Shown here one piece after another: positions 40,432 through 48,103 of a DNA stretch of 64,000 nucleotides. A program made the translations under genes and the position numbers. The DNA is from Alphaproteobacteria bacterium. Lineage in GTDB: Bacteria; Pseudomonadota; Alphaproteobacteria; JAXMDU01. Numbering within the stretch: the first letter of the stretch is position 1; each line of letters opens with the position of its first letter. The notes below the pieces were generated by a model. The model ran no database searches. It was not told the origin of the DNA and saw only the letters and a list, made by a program, of their open reading frames with translations. The stretch lies in NCBI GenBank assembly GCA_046348645.1, contig JAXMDU010000004.1:32645-96644 (forward strand). The letters run 5' to 3'.

Positions 40432-41106
40432 ATGAAGAACCTAGCGATCGGACTGAGCGCTGCGCTCGCCCTTGCCATCGGCGGCACATGGCTTGGCGAC
40501 GCAAAGGCTGCGACCATTTCGGTTGAGAGCGGTGGCATCACCCTCAACTCGTTCGACACCACGAAAGCGGGCACCCTGGCAGATCCCTGGCTGATCGACG
40601 AGACGATGACCGCGCATGGCCATCTCAAGTTCTCGGGCGATGACGAACCGGGCGGCTCGAGCCCCCTTGGCGGTGCCAATCCGACGGGTAGCGGTCACGA
40701 CGAGGGTCGCTGGATCTCGAAGACGGTGCTGAACGATACCGGCATCACCTGGACGTCGTTCGAGCTTGAACTGCAGGTCCTTCTTGGCACGCCATCGGGT
40801 CAAGGCGACGGTCTCAGCTTCGCGGATGGCAGCAGCCTGACGACGCTCTTCACGTCGGACAAGTTCTCGTCCTACACGCGGTTCGACGTCGATCGCGACT
40901 ACCTGAACTTCAGCGGCGGCGAGGTCCTGGATGGCCAGTCGGTCACCTTCCTGTTCGTGATCACCGACAACCTGGCGAACGACCCGTTCTTCCTGCTGCA
41001 GACGCCGAACATCCGTGACGTGCCAGTGCCGGAACCGGCGACGCTGGGGCTGGTGGGCCTGGGCCTGGCCGGACTTGCGGCTTTGCGCCGGCGCAAGGCA
41101 TCCTGA
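40432..41106 (+). CDS. PEP-CTERM sorting-domain protein (exosortase substrate)
   Basis: Signal peptide MKNLAIGLSAALALAIGGTWLGDAKA; C-terminal VPVPEPATLGLVGLGLAGLAALRRRKAS (PEP motif, TM helix, basic tail). Confidence 0.85.
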   Translation: MKNLAIGLSAALALAIGGTWLGDAKAATISVESGGITLNSFDTTKAGTLADPWLIDETMTAHGHLKFSGDDEPGGSSPLGGANPTGSGHDEGRWISKTVLNDTGITWTSFELELQVLLGTPSGQGDGLSFADGSSLTTLFTSDKFSSYTRFDVDRDYLNFSGGEVLDGQSVTFLFVITDNLANDPFFLLQTPNIRDVPVPEPATLGLVGLGLAGLAALRRRKAS

Positions 41107-41130
41107 TCGCGCAGGATCGATCTGCGGAAA

Positions 41131-41160
41131 CGGCGGCCCCTGGGGCCGCCGTTTTCTTTT
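41131..41160 (+). terminator. rho-independent terminator
   Basis: CGGCGGCC cctgg GGCCGCCG followed by TTTTCTTTT. Confidence 0.7.
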
Positions 41161-41447
41161 CAGCCGGCCTTCTCTGACCCCGGCCTTCTCTGACCAGCGC
41201 AATCGGGCCAGGCTAGGGCAGGACCGGGCGATAATGCCGCGCGCGATCTCCTCGCCATCGGCCACAACCACATCCGCGCCGAAAGATTTGAGATAGGCTT
41301 GCTGCTCGCCCTTCGGGGCGTGCCCCGCGATGCGGATCCCGGTGTTTGCGGCCCGCCGGCCGCGGGGCCATTCAAGACCTGGCCCTGGTCATGCAGCCAG
41401 ACTGATTTGAATTATAATAAATCAATACCGTCGCTGTTGACCACCGC

Positions 41448-41461
41448 GTTGACTTCAGTCA
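41448..41461. promoter_or_regulatory. FNR/FixK-type box TTGAC-N4-GTCAA upstream of ubiT
   Basis: Perfect palindrome ttgacttcagtcaa centred about 34 bp upstream of the predicted ubiT start, next to an AT-rich stretch. Confidence 0.5.
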
Positions 41462-41487
41462 AAGACGACCCCAGCAATTCACCGAGA

Positions 41488-42066
41488 ATGGCCGCGATGT
41501 CGAGTTTCGCCCCCGCCCCGGAAGGGGCACCCTGCCTGCCGCCCCTGGCCGGCCGTCTGCTGGCGCCGTTGCCGCTGGGGCCGATCGCCCTGGTTGCCGG
41601 GCGCCTGTTGGGGCGGATCGCGCGCCACCATCCCGAGATGTTCGACCGCCTGGGCGAAAGCGCGACGAAAACCTTTCTGATCGACGCGACCGACCTGCCA
41701 TTCGTTTTTGTGCTGCGGCCCGATCCACTGCGCCCACGGATCGCCGTCACAAGACGGGGCCGTATCCCCGCATTCGATGCGCGAATCGCGGGCCCGCTGG
41801 CGGCTTTGCTGGGCCTTGTCCAGGGAACCTATGACGGCGATGCCCTGTTCTTTTCGCGCGACCTGATGATCGAAGGCGACGTGGAAGCGGTGCTGGCGCT
41901 GCGCAACGCCATCGACGATGCCGAGCTTGACCTGCTGAGCGAAGCCACCGGCCTGTTAGGGCCGCTTCGCCGGCCGGCCGAAGCCCTGTCGCGCGACGTG
42001 TTGCCGGTCATTCATTGGCTGGCGCGGGCATTGCCGCCCCAGCCCCTGGGTCGCCGCGCCCCATGA
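41488..42066 (+). CDS. ubiT: SCP2-domain ubiquinone biosynthesis accessory factor UbiT
   Basis: LFFSRDLMIEGDVEAVLALRNAIDDAEL resembles E. coli UbiT (YhbT); stop overlaps ubiU start (ATGA); start uncertain (41488 or 41497). Confidence 0.65.
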   Translation: MAAMSSFAPAPEGAPCLPPLAGRLLAPLPLGPIALVAGRLLGRIARHHPEMFDRLGESATKTFLIDATDLPFVFVLRPDPLRPRIAVTRRGRIPAFDARIAGPLAALLGLVQGTYDGDALFFSRDLMIEGDVEAVLALRNAIDDAELDLLSEATGLLGPLRRPAEALSRDVLPVIHWLARALPPQPLGRRAP

Positions 42067-43055
42067 CCCCCCGGCACCTGGAACTGGTCTGCCCGGCTGG
42101 AACGCCGGCAGCCCTGCGCACCGCGGTCGATGCCGGGGCGCACGCCATTTATTGCGGCTTCAATGACGAAACCAACGCCCGCAATTTCCCCGGCCTGAAT
42201 TTTTCGCGCCAGGACATGGCCAGGGGCATTGCCTATGCCCACGGCAAGGGTGCCAAGGTGCTGGTCGCCATCAACACCTTTCCACGCGCCGGCGCCGAGA
42301 CGCTTTGGCACCGGGCCGTCGCCGACGCCGATGCAGCGGGGGCAGACGCGATCATCCTGGCCGATATCGGCCTCTTGGCCTTTGCGCGCGACCACCACCC
42401 GCGGCCACGCCGCCATGTGTCGGTGCAGGCGGCGGCCGCCAATCCCCAGGCCATCGCGTTCTACACCGGCGAATTCGGCGTCAAGCGTGTGGTGTTGCCG
42501 CGTGTCCTGTCGGTTGCCGAGATTGCCGCCATCAACCGCCAGATCGACTGCGAGACCGAGGTCTTCGTCTTCGGCGGTCTGTGCGTCATGGCAGAGGGGC
42601 GTTGTTCCCTGTCGTCCTATGTCACGGGAAAGTCGCCCAACATGAATGGCGTCTGCTCGCCCGCCAGCGACGTCAGCTACCAGACGATCGGAACATCGGT
42701 CGTCTCCCGCCTCGGCGGATTCACCATCGACCAGGCCTCGCGCGACGAGCCGACCCCTTATCCGACCCTGTGCAAGGGATGCTTCAAGTCCGGTGCCTAT
42801 ACCGGCCATGTCTTTGCGGAACCGGCAAGCCTTGACGCGGCCGAACTGATCCCCGCCCTGGCCGAGGCCGGCGTTTCGGCGCTCAAGCTTGAAGGCCGGC
42901 AGCGGAGCCGCGCCTATGTCGGCAATGTCGTAAGCACGTTTCGCCGCGCGGTCGATGCCTATGCGGCGGGAAAGCCCATTCCAGCCGGGCAGTTGCAGGC
43001 GATGAGCGAAGGGCAAAGCACGACGGCCGGGGCCTATGTCAAGACCTGGCGATAG
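42063..43055 (+). CDS. ubiU: U32-family O2-independent ubiquinone hydroxylase subunit UbiU
   Basis: Peptidase U32 features (LELVCPAGTPAALRTAVDAGAHAIYCG, conserved Cys cluster) plus ubiT-ubiU-ubiV order. Confidence 0.7.
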   Translation: MTPRHLELVCPAGTPAALRTAVDAGAHAIYCGFNDETNARNFPGLNFSRQDMARGIAYAHGKGAKVLVAINTFPRAGAETLWHRAVADADAAGADAIILADIGLLAFARDHHPRPRRHVSVQAAAANPQAIAFYTGEFGVKRVVLPRVLSVAEIAAINRQIDCETEVFVFGGLCVMAEGRCSLSSYVTGKSPNMNGVCSPASDVSYQTIGTSVVSRLGGFTIDQASRDEPTPYPTLCKGCFKSGAYTGHVFAEPASLDAAELIPALAEAGVSALKLEGRQRSRAYVGNVVSTFRRAVDAYAAGKPIPAGQLQAMSEGQSTTAGAYVKTWR

Positions 43056-43064
43056 GACGGCGCC

Positions 43065-43997
43065 ATGACCGCCATGCCACCCGGGCGAATGGGTCTCACG
43101 CTGGGGCCGGTGCTGTTCCATTGGAATGGCACGCAGCTTTCCGATTTCTATGTCCGGATCGCGGACGAAGCGCCGGTCGAGCGGGTCTGCATCGGCGAGG
43201 TAGTCTGTTCGAAGCGCTTGCCAAGCGTCATCGACAGCCTGGCCCGGGCCATCGAACGCCTGGAACGGGGCGGCAAGGAGGTCATTCTTTCGACCCTTTC
43301 CCTCGTCACCCTGGAGAACGAAAGAAACCGGGTCACGGATCTGGTTCGCGACGCCGCCATGCCCGTCGAAGTGAACGATATTTCGTCCGTTCCGGCGGTT
43401 CAGGGACGCGCCTTCACGGTCGGCCCGTTCGTCAACATCTACAATGAAAGCACGCTCGGCTATTTTGCGCGCCATGGCGCGACGCGCATCTGCCTGCCGC
43501 CCGAACTGCCGCTGTCGTCCATCGCGGTCCTGGCCCGGACCGGCGCGCCGCTTGGCGTTGCCTGCGAGGTTTTCGGCTTCGGGCGTGTGCCGCTTGCCAT
43601 GTCAGGCCGCTGCTATCACGCCCGCCTGCACGGGACGCGCAAGGATGCCTGCCAGTTCGTGTGCGAAAAGGACGCCGACGGGCGGCCCGTCGATACGCTG
43701 GACGGGCAGCCGTTCCTGGCGGTGAACGGCGTCATGACCATGTCGCAGAGCTGCGTCAACCTGATCGAGGATGTCCGCGACATCGCGGGCGCCGGGATCG
43801 ATTCGATCCGCCTGTCGCCCCAGACCTGCGACATGGTCCGGGTCGCGAAGATTTTCCGCGCCGCCATCGATGGCGAGCGGGACCCGGCCGCCGCGCGCCA
43901 GGACCTGGCCGCGCTCATTCCCTTCGCGCCCTTTTCGAACGGGTTCCTGCACGGGACGCGCGGCGTCGCCTATGTCGGTCCCGCAGAGGCCGGCTGA
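43065..43997 (+). CDS. ubiV: U32-family O2-independent ubiquinone hydroxylase subunit UbiV
   Basis: U32 family (YhbV-like), cysteines CEVFGFGRVPLAMSGRCYHARLHGTRKDACQFVC; last 20 codons lie in the left direct repeat. Confidence 0.7.
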   Translation: MTAMPPGRMGLTLGPVLFHWNGTQLSDFYVRIADEAPVERVCIGEVVCSKRLPSVIDSLARAIERLERGGKEVILSTLSLVTLENERNRVTDLVRDAAMPVEVNDISSVPAVQGRAFTVGPFVNIYNESTLGYFARHGATRICLPPELPLSSIAVLARTGAPLGVACEVFGFGRVPLAMSGRCYHARLHGTRKDACQFVCEKDADGRPVDTLDGQPFLAVNGVMTMSQSCVNLIEDVRDIAGAGIDSIRLSPQTCDMVRVAKIFRAAIDGERDPAAARQDLAALIPFAPFSNGFLHGTRGVAYVGPAEAG

Positions 43998-44217
43998 AAC
44001 GCCCTATTCCGCCGCCTTCTGGCGGAACTTCGAGAGCGAGCCCGAATGCATGATCTTGCCGTTGAGATTACGGCCGATCATGCCTTCCACCATCTGCGCG
44101 CAACCGATCAGCTTGTCGAGATCGATGCCGGTCTCGATGCCAAGCTCGGCGCACAGGAACACCATGTCCTCGGTGCAGATGTTGCCGGCCGCGCCCTTGT
44201 GGCCGGCGAAGGGACAG
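43937..44217. repeat. left copy of about 281-bp direct repeat (ubiV 3' end, spacer, 3' end of HMG-CoA lyase-like gene)
   Basis: Near-identical to 48104-48386 with a few 1-2 nt indels/substitutions; flanks the low-GC insertion. Confidence 0.85.
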
Positions 44218-47200
44218 CCGCCGAGCTCACCCTCAGCATCCCATCAACCCAGGAGCACAATAACCCCAGACTCTACTTGTGAATACGATCAAAGCCAGGA
44301 GCACTTCAGCGTCACAGAATGAGAATTCTGTGGAAGCACACTTTTTACGCTTCTTCGCTCCGTTTTTTCGTTGTTGCAACCCACCGCCGTGACGCGCCTC
44401 CTGCCTTGCCTCGCTTTTTCTTCCCTCCCAGATTCACAGCCCCCTTACACTTCGGGTAGTCAGCGCATCCATAGAATGGGCCGAAACGTCCGTTGCGAAG
44501 CTTAGTAGGCCCACCGCATTCAGGGCATGGAGGCCCATCCTTCTGCAGTGACGGATCGGACGGGGAGCTTTTTCGTCCAGACGTGCCCCGCGCACTGTCG
44601 TGCCAGCCGCAGCCTTCCTCATCCTCGCATGTAAAGTACGGGCCGTAGCGGCCCTCCGCATAATATGTTCGCGAGTTGCAGTTCGGGCATCGCGGATTTT
44701 CTGCCTCGGCTACCGTCGAAGCTGCCTCCGCTCGCGCGATCCCAATCCTCTTCGAGACGAATGCAGCAACCTGTTCTGCGAACCCTTCGCTTTCGGCCCT
44801 GGTCATGAACTCATCTGTTCGAGACGTATGTGACAAGGGATTGAGAGAGCCCGACCAGATGACGCGATTATCAATCAAGACGATCTTCTCATGAATGTCG
44901 CGCCGGCAATCGACGACCACCCCAATTCCTTCCAAAGCATCCAAGGCTTGTTTCCCAAGCTCCTCGGGAATTGAGCCGTTGAACCGGGGTGGCCTCGTTA
45001 CACACCGAATTGCGACTCCGTCGCCGATTTTTGTTCTGAACAGGTCTCCATAGGACGCTACACGCTCCGGCGTTATGAAGCCGGAATACATGACAATCGA
45101 CCGCTCCGCCCGGTTCATATCCACCAGACAAGCGTCGGCGAATGTTTTGGAGTGAAACAGCCCGAGCTTCTCTGCATCCAGATCAAGCTCAACAATGCCC
45201 ATGAGGTCTTTCAGATCGCGTTCAATCGGACGCAACGCCATCACTTCGGAAGCGTCGATCACACGACCATGTTCCTGCGCAGTGTGCAGGATACCTCTAA
45301 GCAACGCGGTGCTGGGCAGATGCATATCGAGATAGGTCAGATTGGCCAGCACCAAGAGGTGCTCTTGAGCCCGGCTGACGGCGACGTTCATGAGTCGGGC
45401 ACCGACGTGCTTAGGAGGGATACCCTGCACAAACAACCCAATCCTCCGACTTGGCCCAATGCTTTCAGGGATATCGAGGATCATCATGCGCTTTTCGTCG
45501 CCTTGATAACGATGGACTGTACCGGTCGCGGCGAGTTGGGCCACTGGCTCCATATCCCCAATAAGCTTCTGCAACAGTTTGGCTTGTGCTGCATAGGGCG
45601 TGCATACACCGAGCGCGCTTGAGCTATCCAGAAATCCGTTTGATGCTAAATAGCCGACAAGATTTCGGATGAGAAGCGCATTCAGAAGGTTGAATCGGGA
45701 TTTAAAGATGTTTCGGCTTTCGAACGGCCATAGTCTGGACGTATCGATGATGGTAAGCGCCCCGTCATATGGCGCAGGCGGTCGTGGGCCGTTGGGCCGA
45801 TGGCGTTCTTTGGCCGTTGTAAGCCTTCCTTGATACATGTCTGTCGCGATGAGGCCGCATATCTCGTCCGTCATGCGATACTGAGTATCGAGCAGCGCAT
45901 ATCTGGGATCTTCGCTCTTTCCGTCGATGCCCGCCGACTCAAAGACATCCTGCCCAATGAGATCGTGGATTGCCTGTTGGCGGCTCGGCAAGATCGGCGG
46001 GAGCTGTCGGAAATCACCAGAAACGATCACCCGTTCCGTTGACAGGCCCGCAGCGAAATAAAGCGCGGGCAGAAGCACCATCGACGCTTCGTCAATCACG
46101 ACAACATCAAACCGGCCTATGTCACGTGCCTGGAGGTACGACTTTGCAACAGTTGTCCCGATCACGCGCGCCTCACGCATGATCGACGCTTCCATTTCCG
46201 CTAACCGCCGCGCAATTTCCTGAAGTTCGGCCACAAGCGGCTGACGTTCACCATCAATCGCCTGTCTGTCCCTTTCAAGCTGTTGCCGGTCTTGTACAGA
46301 GAGCTGGGATGCCAAGGATTCAGCCGAAGATCGCACTTCGTTACGTTTGTTCTCTAATGTCTTGGCTTCGGCCGTCCCGTTTCGAACAATTGCTTCCTGA
46401 CGCGCTATTTCCGATTCGGCACGTCGATAGTCGCTTATGATTATCTCATCGGAACGAAGAAAAACGCGACGCAACACGCCTGCGCTTTTCCGCTGTTGCA
46501 GCTCAGCTTTGCAGTCCTGAATTTGTTGCTGCGCCTTTTCATAGGATGCGGCAGCAGTCTTTATGGCGTTAAGGCATGTGTTCAGTTGCTGATTGAGGGA
46601 TGTCAGCTTGCTTTCGGTCCTATCAAGCCGCGCAAAGAGCTGAAGCTTTTCGTTTATAGATGTCGCTTTGGCGTCGAACAGCGCCACTTGTTCTTCCAGC
46701 TCGTGTTGTCGCTCCCTGAGTCCCTTCGACAACCGTTCGATAATACCGTCTGTCGTCACATAGGATGCGTACTCGTTCTTAAGCTCCGGAAGGACAATGT
46801 TGCCGATGCGAACAACTTTGCCTTCTTCAAACGCGGCATGTTTGAGATGCTCCAGATGACGGCAAAGCTTATAGATAAGCTGATCAACAGCCTGGTTCGT
46901 GTTGGAGCAGACGAGGATACGCTTTCCAGCGTCAAATGCGGCTTGAATGCCGACGGACAGTGTTTGCGTTTTTCCCGTCCCCGGAGGTCCCCACAGGTAT
47001 GAAATGCTGTGCTCCAGCATCAAGTGCAGTGCAGCGTTCTGGCTATCATTCAGATCGTGAGGCGGCACGCCGATTGGCGACACTTCGGAGTTGTGGATTT
47101 CCTTGGATACGACGCTATCCGCCACTGATGCAGATAGATTCAGTTCGCCCTTGCCCACCTGATCAAGGCGGTCTTTCAGTGCTTCGATCAGAGCCGTGTT

Positions 47201-48103
47201 GTCGATGAGAAGTATGCAACGTCGGATTGATGGTCCCAGGTTGCCATCCAGCGAAATAAGTATGGTCCCTTCCGATATTGATACGATTTGCCCTCTGCTA
47301 CGTCGGCCATCGACTTCAATTTCTATTCGCGCTTCCTCGAAAATCTCCGCTTCTTCAGAGAACGGGAATACATAGATAGGTTGGCCCGCCTGCGTGTCTA
47401 CGACTTTGCCGCGCTCCAGTTCATAACGGCGACTGCCGCTACCTTCTCTTCGCATTTCGCTTATCAGGGCGTCGAGCGCGAGAACATAGCGCTGTATGTT
47501 TGTGGAATCCTGCGGCAGATCGATAACCAGATCGGTGTCCAGAGCCGGTTGGTAGGCATCAGGCTTTCCCCTAACCCCTGGAGCAGCGATCCCGGTGAAA
47601 TGTTGCGGTATCCTCCTGTCATCAGGTTGCTCGTCCGGGATAGACGGAGTTGATACTTCAGCAGGCCTTTGGCTCGCCGAAGCGAATGATGCCGCTGGGT
47701 CTGAAGATGTACGGGAAGGTACGGGCCGGTTCTCCGGGCGCACGCCAACAGGCTGCCCCTCAAACAAGTGGCCGGTTGGCGCAGGGCCTTCCCTTGATTG
47801 GTTCTCTATTGCTGTGAGGCGTTCTTCAACTCGGCTACGAAGCCTCTTTGCCCGGTCGGTCTTCCGGTGTTCAAGCTCATCGAGAAGGCTCCGCATCGTG
47901 GCCCGCTCTTCGCCTTTTTCGGCGAAAAGCTTCTCAAGCTGGACTATTCCATGCTGGATGAAGGTCCGCTTCATTCTTGGTCGCCTGCCTCAAGCGCCGT
48001 TCCTTTGCTCCCAGGAAAACGTATGCCACTTCGGATGGTAAGAATTTCTCAAGACCATAGTGTTGCCCCCTAGAATAGTGCCGACGGCGAGGTAACGCTT
48101 CTT
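44218..48103. mobile_element. putative horizontally acquired insertion (about 3.9 kb, lower GC), no integrase/transposase, single cargo gene
   Basis: GC about 47-52% in sampled lines versus about 60-75% in flanks; bounded by the 281/283-bp direct repeats; interrupts the 3' region of the HMG-CoA lyase-like gene. Confidence 0.55.
44345..47974 (-). CDS. 1209-aa fusion: Upf1-like SF1 helicase + PLD (HKD) nuclease domain + two topoisomerase-type C4 zinc ribbons
   Basis: Helicase motifs WGPPGTGKTQT, VCSNTNQAVDQL, VVVIDEASM, SGDFRQLPP, QYRM, VHRYQGDEKRMMILD, NVAVSRAQEHL, with about 250-aa coiled-coil insert between Walker A and B; HKD motif HEKIVLIDNRVIWSGSLN; ribbons CPNC...C..C and CPEC...C..C; K/R-rich tail. 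Confidence 0.75.
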   Translation of the reverse strand: MKRTFIQHGIVQLEKLFAEKGEERATMRSLLDELEHRKTDRAKRLRSRVEERLTAIENQSREGPAPTGHLFEGQPVGVRPENRPVPSRTSSDPAASFASASQRPAEVSTPSIPDEQPDDRRIPQHFTGIAAPGVRGKPDAYQPALDTDLVIDLPQDSTNIQRYVLALDALISEMRREGSGSRRYELERGKVVDTQAGQPIYVFPFSEEAEIFEEARIEIEVDGRRSRGQIVSISEGTILISLDGNLGPSIRRCILLIDNTALIEALKDRLDQVGKGELNLSASVADSVVSKEIHNSEVSPIGVPPHDLNDSQNAALHLMLEHSISYLWGPPGTGKTQTLSVGIQAAFDAGKRILVCSNTNQAVDQLIYKLCRHLEHLKHAAFEEGKVVRIGNIVLPELKNEYASYVTTDGIIERLSKGLRERQHELEEQVALFDAKATSINEKLQLFARLDRTESKLTSLNQQLNTCLNAIKTAAASYEKAQQQIQDCKAELQQRKSAGVLRRVFLRSDEIIISDYRRAESEIARQEAIVRNGTAEAKTLENKRNEVRSSAESLASQLSVQDRQQLERDRQAIDGERQPLVAELQEIARRLAEMEASIMREARVIGTTVAKSYLQARDIGRFDVVVIDEASMVLLPALYFAAGLSTERVIVSGDFRQLPPILPSRQQAIHDLIGQDVFESAGIDGKSEDPRYALLDTQYRMTDEICGLIATDMYQGRLTTAKERHRPNGPRPPAPYDGALTIIDTSRLWPFESRNIFKSRFNLLNALLIRNLVGYLASNGFLDSSSALGVCTPYAAQAKLLQKLIGDMEPVAQLAATGTVHRYQGDEKRMMILDIPESIGPSRRIGLFVQGIPPKHVGARLMNVAVSRAQEHLLVLANLTYLDMHLPSTALLRGILHTAQEHGRVIDASEVMALRPIERDLKDLMGIVELDLDAEKLGLFHSKTFADACLVDMNRAERSIVMYSGFITPERVASYGDLFRTKIGDGVAIRCVTRPPRFNGSIPEELGKQALDALEGIGVVVDCRRDIHEKIVLIDNRVIWSGSLNPLSHTSRTDEFMTRAESEGFAEQVAAFVSKRIGIARAEAASTVAEAENPRCPNCNSRTYYAEGRYGPYFTCEDEEGCGWHDSARGTSGRKSSPSDPSLQKDGPPCPECGGPTKLRNGRFGPFYGCADYPKCKGAVNLGGKKKRGKAGGASRRWVATTKKRSEEA

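Follow-up and report, generated by a model that had tools for sequence, protein, structure and literature searches.

What switches on the genes for O2-independent ubiquinone synthesis in an alphaproteobacterium, and where do the transcript and the reading frame of the leading gene, ubiT, begin? Both questions are raised by a short palindrome that lies directly upstream of ubiT-ubiU-ubiV in a 64 kb stretch of DNA, which we refer to as the window. The initial annotation had read this palindrome as an FNR/FixK-type anaerobox and had proposed that ubiT has either a very short or leaderless transcript or a start codon further downstream. We examined the genes, the box, its conservation across orthologous loci, and the geometry of the predicted promoter, and we compared the locus with ubiTUV systems that have been studied experimentally.

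The ubiT-ubiU-ubiV operon and its neighbors

The identification of the downstream genes as ubiT, ubiU, and ubiV was borne out, as each product scored above the curated cut-off of its NCBIfam equivalog model. Read from the second ATG, ubiT (41497–42066, + strand) encodes an SCP2-domain accessory factor of 189 amino acids (Pfam SCP2, E = 3e-10; UbiT equivalog, 71 bits against a cut-off of 46.9). The other two genes encode U32-family [4Fe-4S] proteins: ubiU (42063–43055, + strand), with 330 amino acids and 489.8 bits against the UbiU equivalog (cut-off 440), and ubiV (43065–43997, + strand), with 310 amino acids and 360 bits against the UbiV equivalog (cut-off 275). Cysteines 174, 181, 198, and 237 of UbiU match the E. 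coli cluster ligands C169, C176, C193, and C232 exactly in their spacing. UbiV carries C42...C183-X12-C196-X3-C200 and thereby the published UbiV Fe-S cysteine motif, CXnCX12CX3C (PMC6747719). The best UbiU relatives, at 73% identity, were found in Pannonibacter, Niveispirillum, Rhodoblastus, and Beijerinckiaceae. A search for the identical UbiV protein had no match, and among plasmids we recovered only distant U32 relatives (72–78% identity). An acyl-CoA ligase encoded nearby had an identical counterpart on a single 3-kb Logan contig (run SRR26348421) and nowhere else.

The three genes are co-localized on the + strand, which is the published same-strand architecture with an FNR site preceding ubiT (PMC11707229). 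The ATG of ubiU overlaps the stop codon of ubiT as ATGA (42063–42066), and ubiV starts 9 nt past the ubiU stop codon. Mechanically called open reading frames are longer than the likely genes, spanning 41299–42066 for the ubiT frame and 42015–43055 for the ubiU frame, which is open from a TTG at 42015. From homology and the ATGA overlap, we predict that ubiU starts at ATG 42063 rather than at TTG 42015, and automatic annotation may over-extend both ubiT and ubiU.

Because the next gene downstream is convergent with ubiV, the operon consists of ubiT-ubiU-ubiV only. The product of this convergent gene (44345–47974, − strand), 1209 aa in length, combines helicase domains of the SF1 type (AAA_11/AAA_12) with a topoisomerase-type zinc ribbon at its C-terminus; a PLD-like match was weak and fell short of the Pfam cut-off. 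The gene may be a defense or mobile-element gene. The GC content appears lower from about position 44000 onward.

Upstream of ubiT, the neighboring genes are unrelated and encode a PEP-CTERM protein (same strand), a Zn-dependent dehydrogenase, and acyl-CoA ligases. We considered ubiD as a divergent partner gene, which is common in relatives, and found none in the window. At seven orthologous loci (L012, L014, L072, L083, L085, L088, and L094), a divergent ubiD-like gene starts approximately 30–50 nt 5' of the box; its product in L072 has 502 amino acids and the N-terminus MSFRDLPPFHDLRAF... In those relatives, ubiD and ubiTUV may share one FNR-type site. The window and its closest relative, the metagenomic locus L080 (73% UbiT identity), differ from this arrangement in having a same-strand PEP-CTERM gene 5' of ubiT and no ubiD.

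A candidate Crp/Fnr-type box upstream of ubiT

The candidate binding site for a Crp/Fnr-family regulator of the FNR/FnrL/FixK type, TTGAC-TTCA-GTCAA, was recognized by its exact match and by its conservation at orthologous loci. The 14-mer TTGACTTCAGTCAA lies on the + strand at 41449–41462, within the local sequence ...ccgcgTTGACTTCAGTCAAagacg..., and all 10 of its arm bases form a perfect inverted repeat with the dyad center between 41455 and 41456 (41455.5). The perfect TTGAC-N4-GTCAA palindrome reported initially is thus present, although the coordinates given for it (41448–41461) were one base too low. It had also been placed about 34 bp 5' of the ubiT start, which is true for the second ATG: 34 nt separate the end of the box (41462) from ATG 41497, compared with only 25 nt for the first ATG at 41488. 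The dyad agrees with the TTGAT-N4-ATCAA criterion for an FNR/FixK anaerobox and has intact TTGA and TCAA arms.

Across both strands of the window, exact TTGAC-N4-GTCAA occurred at this one site, compared with 0.07 sites expected from dinucleotide-preserving shuffles; 7 of 100 shuffles produced a single exact match. When the search was widened to TTGAY-N4-RTCAA and one mismatch was allowed, five sites were found in the window, versus 3.6 expected. We rejected the four other one-mismatch sites, which are within chance expectation and, when their coordinates were compared with the lists of open reading frames, lie inside long frames. The box at 41449–41462 is the only convincing site of its type in the window. 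An additional TTGAC half-site occurs in direct orientation at 41437–41441, 12 bp 5' of the left arm of the box (gctgTTGACcaccgcgTTGACttcaGTCAA), and is not conserved in L080.

Conservation of the box at orthologous loci

We retrieved 78 genome loci with a UbiU query and 80 metagenome loci with a UbiT query, and placed the UbiT frames by tblastn. A box in a relative was defined as TTGA-N6-TCAA with at most one mismatch within 300 nt 5' of UbiT. By this definition, a box preceded UbiT in 68 of the 74 genome loci that have UbiT (the window counted) and in 61 of the 75 metagenome loci with enough upstream DNA. Among the genome loci, the box lies 540–760 nt before the conserved ubiU start, and the corresponding distance in the window is 629 nt. 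Both dyad arms are therefore kept at the same position in approximately 130 orthologous loci, which excludes chance and indicates that both arms are under selection. This recurrence at the orthologous position sustains the original reading of the palindrome as an FNR/FixK-type anaerobox.

Six genome loci with ubiT-ubiU (L023, L038, L048, L050, L055, and L059) had no box with at most one mismatch within 300 nt 5' of ubiT. Several of these belong to Bradyrhizobium, including B. elkanii and B. cenepequi. In L038, L048, and L059, TTGATGACGCGCAA is found inside ubiT, 136 nt before the conserved ubiU start.

Promoter geometry and the predicted −10 element

To describe the promoter beyond the box, we grouped the 129 boxed loci into 89 clusters at 80% identity and aligned these non-redundant promoters on the box. 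The box arms carry 1.4–2.3 bits per position. Downstream, the only other informative positions, counted from the dyad center, are T at +29.5 (62 of 89), A at +30.5 (66 of 89), and A at +33.5 (48 of 89), which correspond to −12, −11, and −8 of a −10 hexamer for a start at center +41.5. Positions between the box and the −10 element hold no information across the 89 clusters. A box centered at −41.5 from the start is the textbook class II arrangement of FNR and CRP, and the conserved −10 spacing implies a predicted transcription start near +41.5 from the box center, at the class II position.

When this geometry is applied to the window, 41455.5 plus 41.5 places the predicted transcription start at 41497 (or at G 41496). 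The box-anchored alignment puts the predicted −10 element at GAGAAT (41484–41489, + strand), which keeps the A at position 2 and the T at position 6, matches TATAAT at four of six positions, and is located one base upstream of the majority register. Seven nucleotides separate its end from ATG 41497. The −35 region reads CAAAGA and has no −35 hexamer, which fits expectation because the promoter would be activator-dependent. Between the box and the −10 element, the window has GCAAT at 41474–41478; the same motif, in place or shifted by one base, occurs in L080 and most Bradyrhizobium ubiT promoters and is not conserved across all 89 clusters.

Experimental support for the geometry comes from Sphingopyxis granuli, in which the Fnr box of ubiTUV is centered at −40.5 from the start mapped by dRNA-seq (PMC7713065). 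This is the one alphaproteobacterial ubiT promoter with a mapped start, and it agrees with the alignment (−40.5 versus +41.5).

The ubiT start codon and a probably leaderless message

Two in-frame ATGs lie near the ubiT start, one at 41488, inside the predicted −10 element, and one at 41497. No Shine-Dalgarno sequence was found before 41488, 41497, or TTG 41569, and the 20 nt 5' of 41497 read attcaccgagaatggccgcg. The ubiT frame is open from 41299 and contains in-frame TTG, GTG, or ATG codons at 41299, 41320, 41407, 41437, 41449, and 41488, so that a longer UbiT from an upstream in-frame start may be possible. The TTG at 41449 is the box's own and is itself an in-frame start candidate. In-frame first-position GC is 0.35–0.38 over 41359–41496, which is non-coding-like, whereas codon-position GC from 41497 onward is coding-like (0.77/0.52/0.79). 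Alignments with the N-termini of relatives begin at the second ATG. In L080, the box (TTGATTCATGTCAA), a GAAGAT element, and an ATG occur at exactly the spacings of the window, and ATC occupies the place of the window's first ATG (41488).

Based on box spacing, the lack of a Shine-Dalgarno sequence, and codon-position GC, we propose the ATG at 41497–41499 (+ strand) as the ubiT start codon, which is also where transcription is predicted to start (at A 41497 or at G 41496). We consider it rather likely that ubiT starts at 41497 on a transcript that is leaderless or has a single-nucleotide leader. This places the start codon at 41497 rather than at 41488 or at the beginning of the open reading frame (41299). 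Of the two options raised at the outset, the leaderless one is best supported by the geometry, with the center plus 41.5 falling on 41497 and the ATG position recurring in about 20 of 89 clusters. The start further downstream did not hold up: we rejected TTG 41569, the next start codon in frame, which also lacks a Shine-Dalgarno sequence and whose use would cut off N-terminal residues that can still be aligned with those of relatives.

The position of the ATG in the window recurs in other lineages. Of the 89 promoter clusters, 19 have an ATG at +41.5 to +43.5, or 20 when one at +40.5 is included. Positions of the first in-frame start codon peak sharply at +41.5/+42.5, with 16 of 84 clusters there (binomial p = 3.5e-7 versus a flat distribution), and a second, broad group of first start codons extends from +50 to +85. 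We defined a close-spaced group by a first in-frame start at +38.5 to +46.5 from the box center. ATG was used in 26 of the 30 close-spaced clusters compared with 29 of the 58 others, which often have TTG or GTG. Shine-Dalgarno-like motifs showed the opposite pattern, with 7 of 30 close-spaced clusters and 35 of 58 others containing one (Fisher p = 0.0015). Judged by these sequence features, the close-spaced group behaves as leaderless genes should.

The close-spaced group comprises Bradyrhizobium, Beijerinckiaceae and Rhabdaerophilum MAGs, Roseiarcus, a Rhodoblastus MAG, several metagenome lineages, and L080. In the leadered group, which includes Stappiaceae, Rhodopseudomonas, Magnetospirillum, Niveispirillum, and Roseobacter-group Rhodobacterales, the geometry from the box to the −10 element is unchanged, and a leader of 15–45 nt with a GGAG or AGGAG motif is added. 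The subset with a window-like ATG position makes up about one-fifth of the non-redundant ubiT promoters and includes the window, L080, Bradyrhizobium, Beijerinckiaceae, and Roseiarcus. On balance, we lean toward the view that, in a recurrent alphaproteobacterial subset, a class II promoter of the FNR type produces a leaderless ubiT mRNA, so that one protein-DNA contact would set the start of both transcription and translation.

A 2024 survey of ubiTUV loci reported a median distance from box to start codon of −69 to −72 nt, calculated from annotated starts (PMC11707229), which suggests that the leadered layout is commoner. That survey gives only median distances for the box and the start codon, and the word "leaderless" is absent from its supplements (PMC11707229). 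The leaderless layout of ubiT does not appear to be stated in the papers that we consulted, and we regard the discrete 41–43 nt class as a modest addition.

The upstream spacer and an AT-rich block

The intergenic region 5' of ubiT is approximately 390 nt long in the window, compared with 215 nt in L080. It contains an AT-rich block, TTGAATTATAATAAATCAATA (41407–41427), which stands out against a genome GC content of 64%, lies about 70–90 nt 5' of the predicted transcription start, and shares sub-blocks with L080: GAATTAT...TCAATA (41409–41427) is common to both loci, while the surrounding spacer has diverged. TATAAT occurs in this block on the + strand (41413–41418) and on the − strand (41416–41411), and a promoter scan returned a minus-strand TCAACA-18-TATAAT with 10 of 12 matches. 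The block may represent a second regulatory site and thereby an additional regulatory input; alternatively, it may be a divergent promoter, although no gene that it would drive is obvious. No RNA family or open reading frame explains it. An Rfam search of 40900–41700 found nothing near the gathering score, and the weak matches were limited to the terminator hairpin of the upstream gene.

The remainder of the spacer differs between the two loci. The terminator of the PEP-CTERM gene, a hairpin followed by a T-run, is located at about 41129–41160, and just past it is a perfect tandem duplication of the 16-mer CCGGCCTTCTCTGACC (41164–41195). A GC-rich spacer of approximately 240 nt (41160–41400) is missing from L080. 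Within it, we considered a minus-strand frame (...LKSFGADVVVADGEEIARGII...) that resembles a gene remnant, and dropped it as it had no Pfam match.

Comparison with characterized ubiTUV promoters

Anaerobic induction of these genes by FNR in E. coli, which the initial annotation had cited, is published: FNR activates the O2-independent ubiquinone genes ubiT and ubiUV, with Fnr sites F2 and F1 located 33–36 nt 5' of the transcription starts (PMC10470549). Mutations in the F1 and F2 sites abolish anaerobic induction, and the sites are required for activation by Fnr (PMC10470549). The E. coli layout differs from that of the window. There, ubiT and ubiUV are transcribed divergently and each is served by a separate, imperfect box that resembles an FNR half-site, whereas in the window a single perfect site precedes a single T-U-V operon. 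In addition, E. coli ubiT has an aerobic promoter, and the transcripts carry leaders.

Alphaproteobacterial systems are closer in arrangement. In S. granuli TFA, yhbTUV (ubiTUV; SGRAN_3858-3860) is among the operons most strongly induced in anaerobiosis, and ubiU is uninduced in a Δfnr mutant (PMC7713065). Like the window, this alphaproteobacterium has a three-gene operon led by ubiT with a single Fnr box 5' of ubiT.

In Bradyrhizobium diazoefficiens, a FixK2 box at −48 precedes bll7628-bll7627, which encode a sterol-binding protein and a U32 peptidase (PMC6710368). Anoxia raises the expression of this pair 10-fold and 75-fold, and their expression falls 10- and 15-fold in an nnrR mutant (PMC6710368). 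The Bradyrhizobium spacing from box to ATG resembles that of the window, with the ATG at +42.5 from the box center compared with +41.5, and the −10 region has a similar flavor (CCAGAT versus GAGAAT, with a GCAAT motif in both). Bradyrhizobium differs in its imperfect box (TTGTTCCCGCTCAA) and in that expression has been shown to depend on NnrR. The supplements of the Bradyrhizobium dRNA-seq start-site map have no entry for bll7628 or bll7627.

In Rhodobacter sphaeroides, an FnrL ChIP-chip peak covers TTGATgtagGTCAA 5' of RSP0466-4, and these genes were called experimentally confirmed FnrL targets (PMC2908626). RSP0466 is annotated as a lipid carrier protein and RSP0465 as a U32 peptidase (PMC2908626), and we read them as ubiT and ubiU. 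The exact 14-mer of the window, TTGACttcaGTCAA, also lies under an FnrL peak elsewhere in the R. sphaeroides genome (PMC2908626). The R. sphaeroides box differs in context, as it sits between a divergent ubiD and RSP0466 and may serve both, whereas the window has no ubiD.

More broadly, of the 1566 ubiTUV loci that the 2024 survey covered in Pseudomonadota, 87% have candidate FNR sites; the alphaproteobacterial motif is TTGABCYRGVTCAA, and the site precedes ubiT in 65% of same-strand T-U-V operons (PMC11707229). FNR-family control of ubiTUV is already published, and the locus in the window is a further instance of a documented arrangement. The only addition to current knowledge would be that a sizeable minority of ubiT promoters appear, from their sequence, to be built with an FNR-dependent start on the ATG.

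Proposed mechanism and alternative explanations

We hold it to be quite probable, as the best explanation overall, that 41449–41462 is the operator of a class II activator-dependent promoter for a probably leaderless ubiT-ubiU-ubiV. Under low oxygen, a Crp/Fnr-family dimer of the FNR/FnrL/FixK type would bind TTGAC-N4-GTCAA approximately 41.5 bp 5' of the transcription start. The bound regulator would substitute for the missing −35 hexamer and recruit RNA polymerase to the weak −10 element GAGAAT (41484–41489), so that transcription would begin at the A of ATG 41497 or one base before it. The resulting ubiT mRNA, with no 5' leader or Shine-Dalgarno sequence, would be translated as a leaderless message, ubiU would be translated by coupling via the ATGA overlap (42063–42066), and ubiV would follow 9 nt later. 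The predicted outcome is anaerobic induction of the O2-independent ubiquinone hydroxylation system.

For the window, we infer the binding of an FNR-type protein, the response to O2, the exact transcription start, and leaderless translation; activation of its ubiTUV by the FNR family in particular we judge to be highly probable. No Crp/Fnr-family gene was found in the 64 kb window by tblastn with E. coli FNR and CRP (approximate queries; best E = 0.84), and a pattern search of the same 64 kb for the helix-turn-helix recognition helix had no match, so the cognate regulator is assumed rather than seen.

FnrL/FNR, FixK, and NnrR/DNR-type proteins read overlapping boxes. The box could accordingly be functional but read by another Crp/Fnr paralog, either an NO-responsive protein of the NnrR/DNR type or a FixK set by FixLJ. 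The signal would then be denitrification and NO, or microoxia sensed indirectly, instead of direct sensing of O2 by the FNR iron-sulfur cluster. The 10–15 fold decrease of the B. diazoefficiens ubiT-ubiU operon in the nnrR mutant is consistent with this alternative (PMC6710368), as is comparative genomics that places U32 peptidase and lipid carrier genes in the DNR regulon across alphaproteobacteria (PMC2908626), and the sequence by itself does not reveal which paralog binds. However, the TTGAC/GTCAA arms belong to the FNR/FnrL/FixK type, and an R. sphaeroides ChIP-chip peak of FnrL covers the identical 14-mer (PMC2908626), whereas several boxes at NnrR-dependent denitrification promoters of Bradyrhizobium are of the TTGCG/CGCAA or TTGTT/CGCAA type (PMC6710368). 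Moreover, the regulator shown experimentally in S. granuli and R. sphaeroides is Fnr or FnrL (PMC7713065, PMC2908626). We consider control by another paralog unlikely.

A second alternative retains the box but changes its role: ubiT would be translated from ATG 41488 or an upstream in-frame start, on a transcript from a promoter further upstream, and the box would be a repressor site, a roadblock, or a modulator. This would make use of the frame open from 41299 with its several in-frame start codons, and of the consensus TATAAT on the + strand in the AT-rich block (41413–41418). However, first-position GC is 0.35–0.38 upstream of 41497 and 0.77 downstream of it, the promoter scan found no + strand sigma-70 promoter in the region, and ATG 41488 lacks a Shine-Dalgarno sequence and has no counterpart in L080, with relatives aligning from the second ATG. 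All experimentally studied ubiT boxes are activating (PMC10470549, PMC7713065). We regard this second alternative as quite improbable.

Finally, it is very improbable that the palindrome is a chance occurrence, for all that 7 of 100 shuffles yielded an exact match, or that its left arm TTGACT, a 5/6 match to TTGACA, is the −35 element of a constitutive sigma-70 promoter TTGACT-N18-AGCAAT, a candidate that we rejected: both arms are conserved in about 130 orthologous loci where a −35 hexamer would need the left arm only, AGCAAT is without the essential A at its second position, 18 nt would separate the two hexamers, and the region between the box and the −10 element is uninformative across the 89 clusters.

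Implications

If activation from a class II box with a start on the ATG is true for the window, ubiU would depend on ATGA coupling to ubiT. The leaderless layout could also tie production of the accessory factor to the rules of leaderless-message translation under anoxia or stress. Provided that the start falls on the ATG, ubiT would neatly illustrate how a class II activator can control a leaderless gene. For the organism itself, the alphaproteobacterium represented by the window very probably switches on O2-independent ubiquinone synthesis via an FNR-type regulator, as its relatives do, and a regulated ubiTUV would mark the host as a facultative anaerobe or microaerobe, and possibly a denitrifier.
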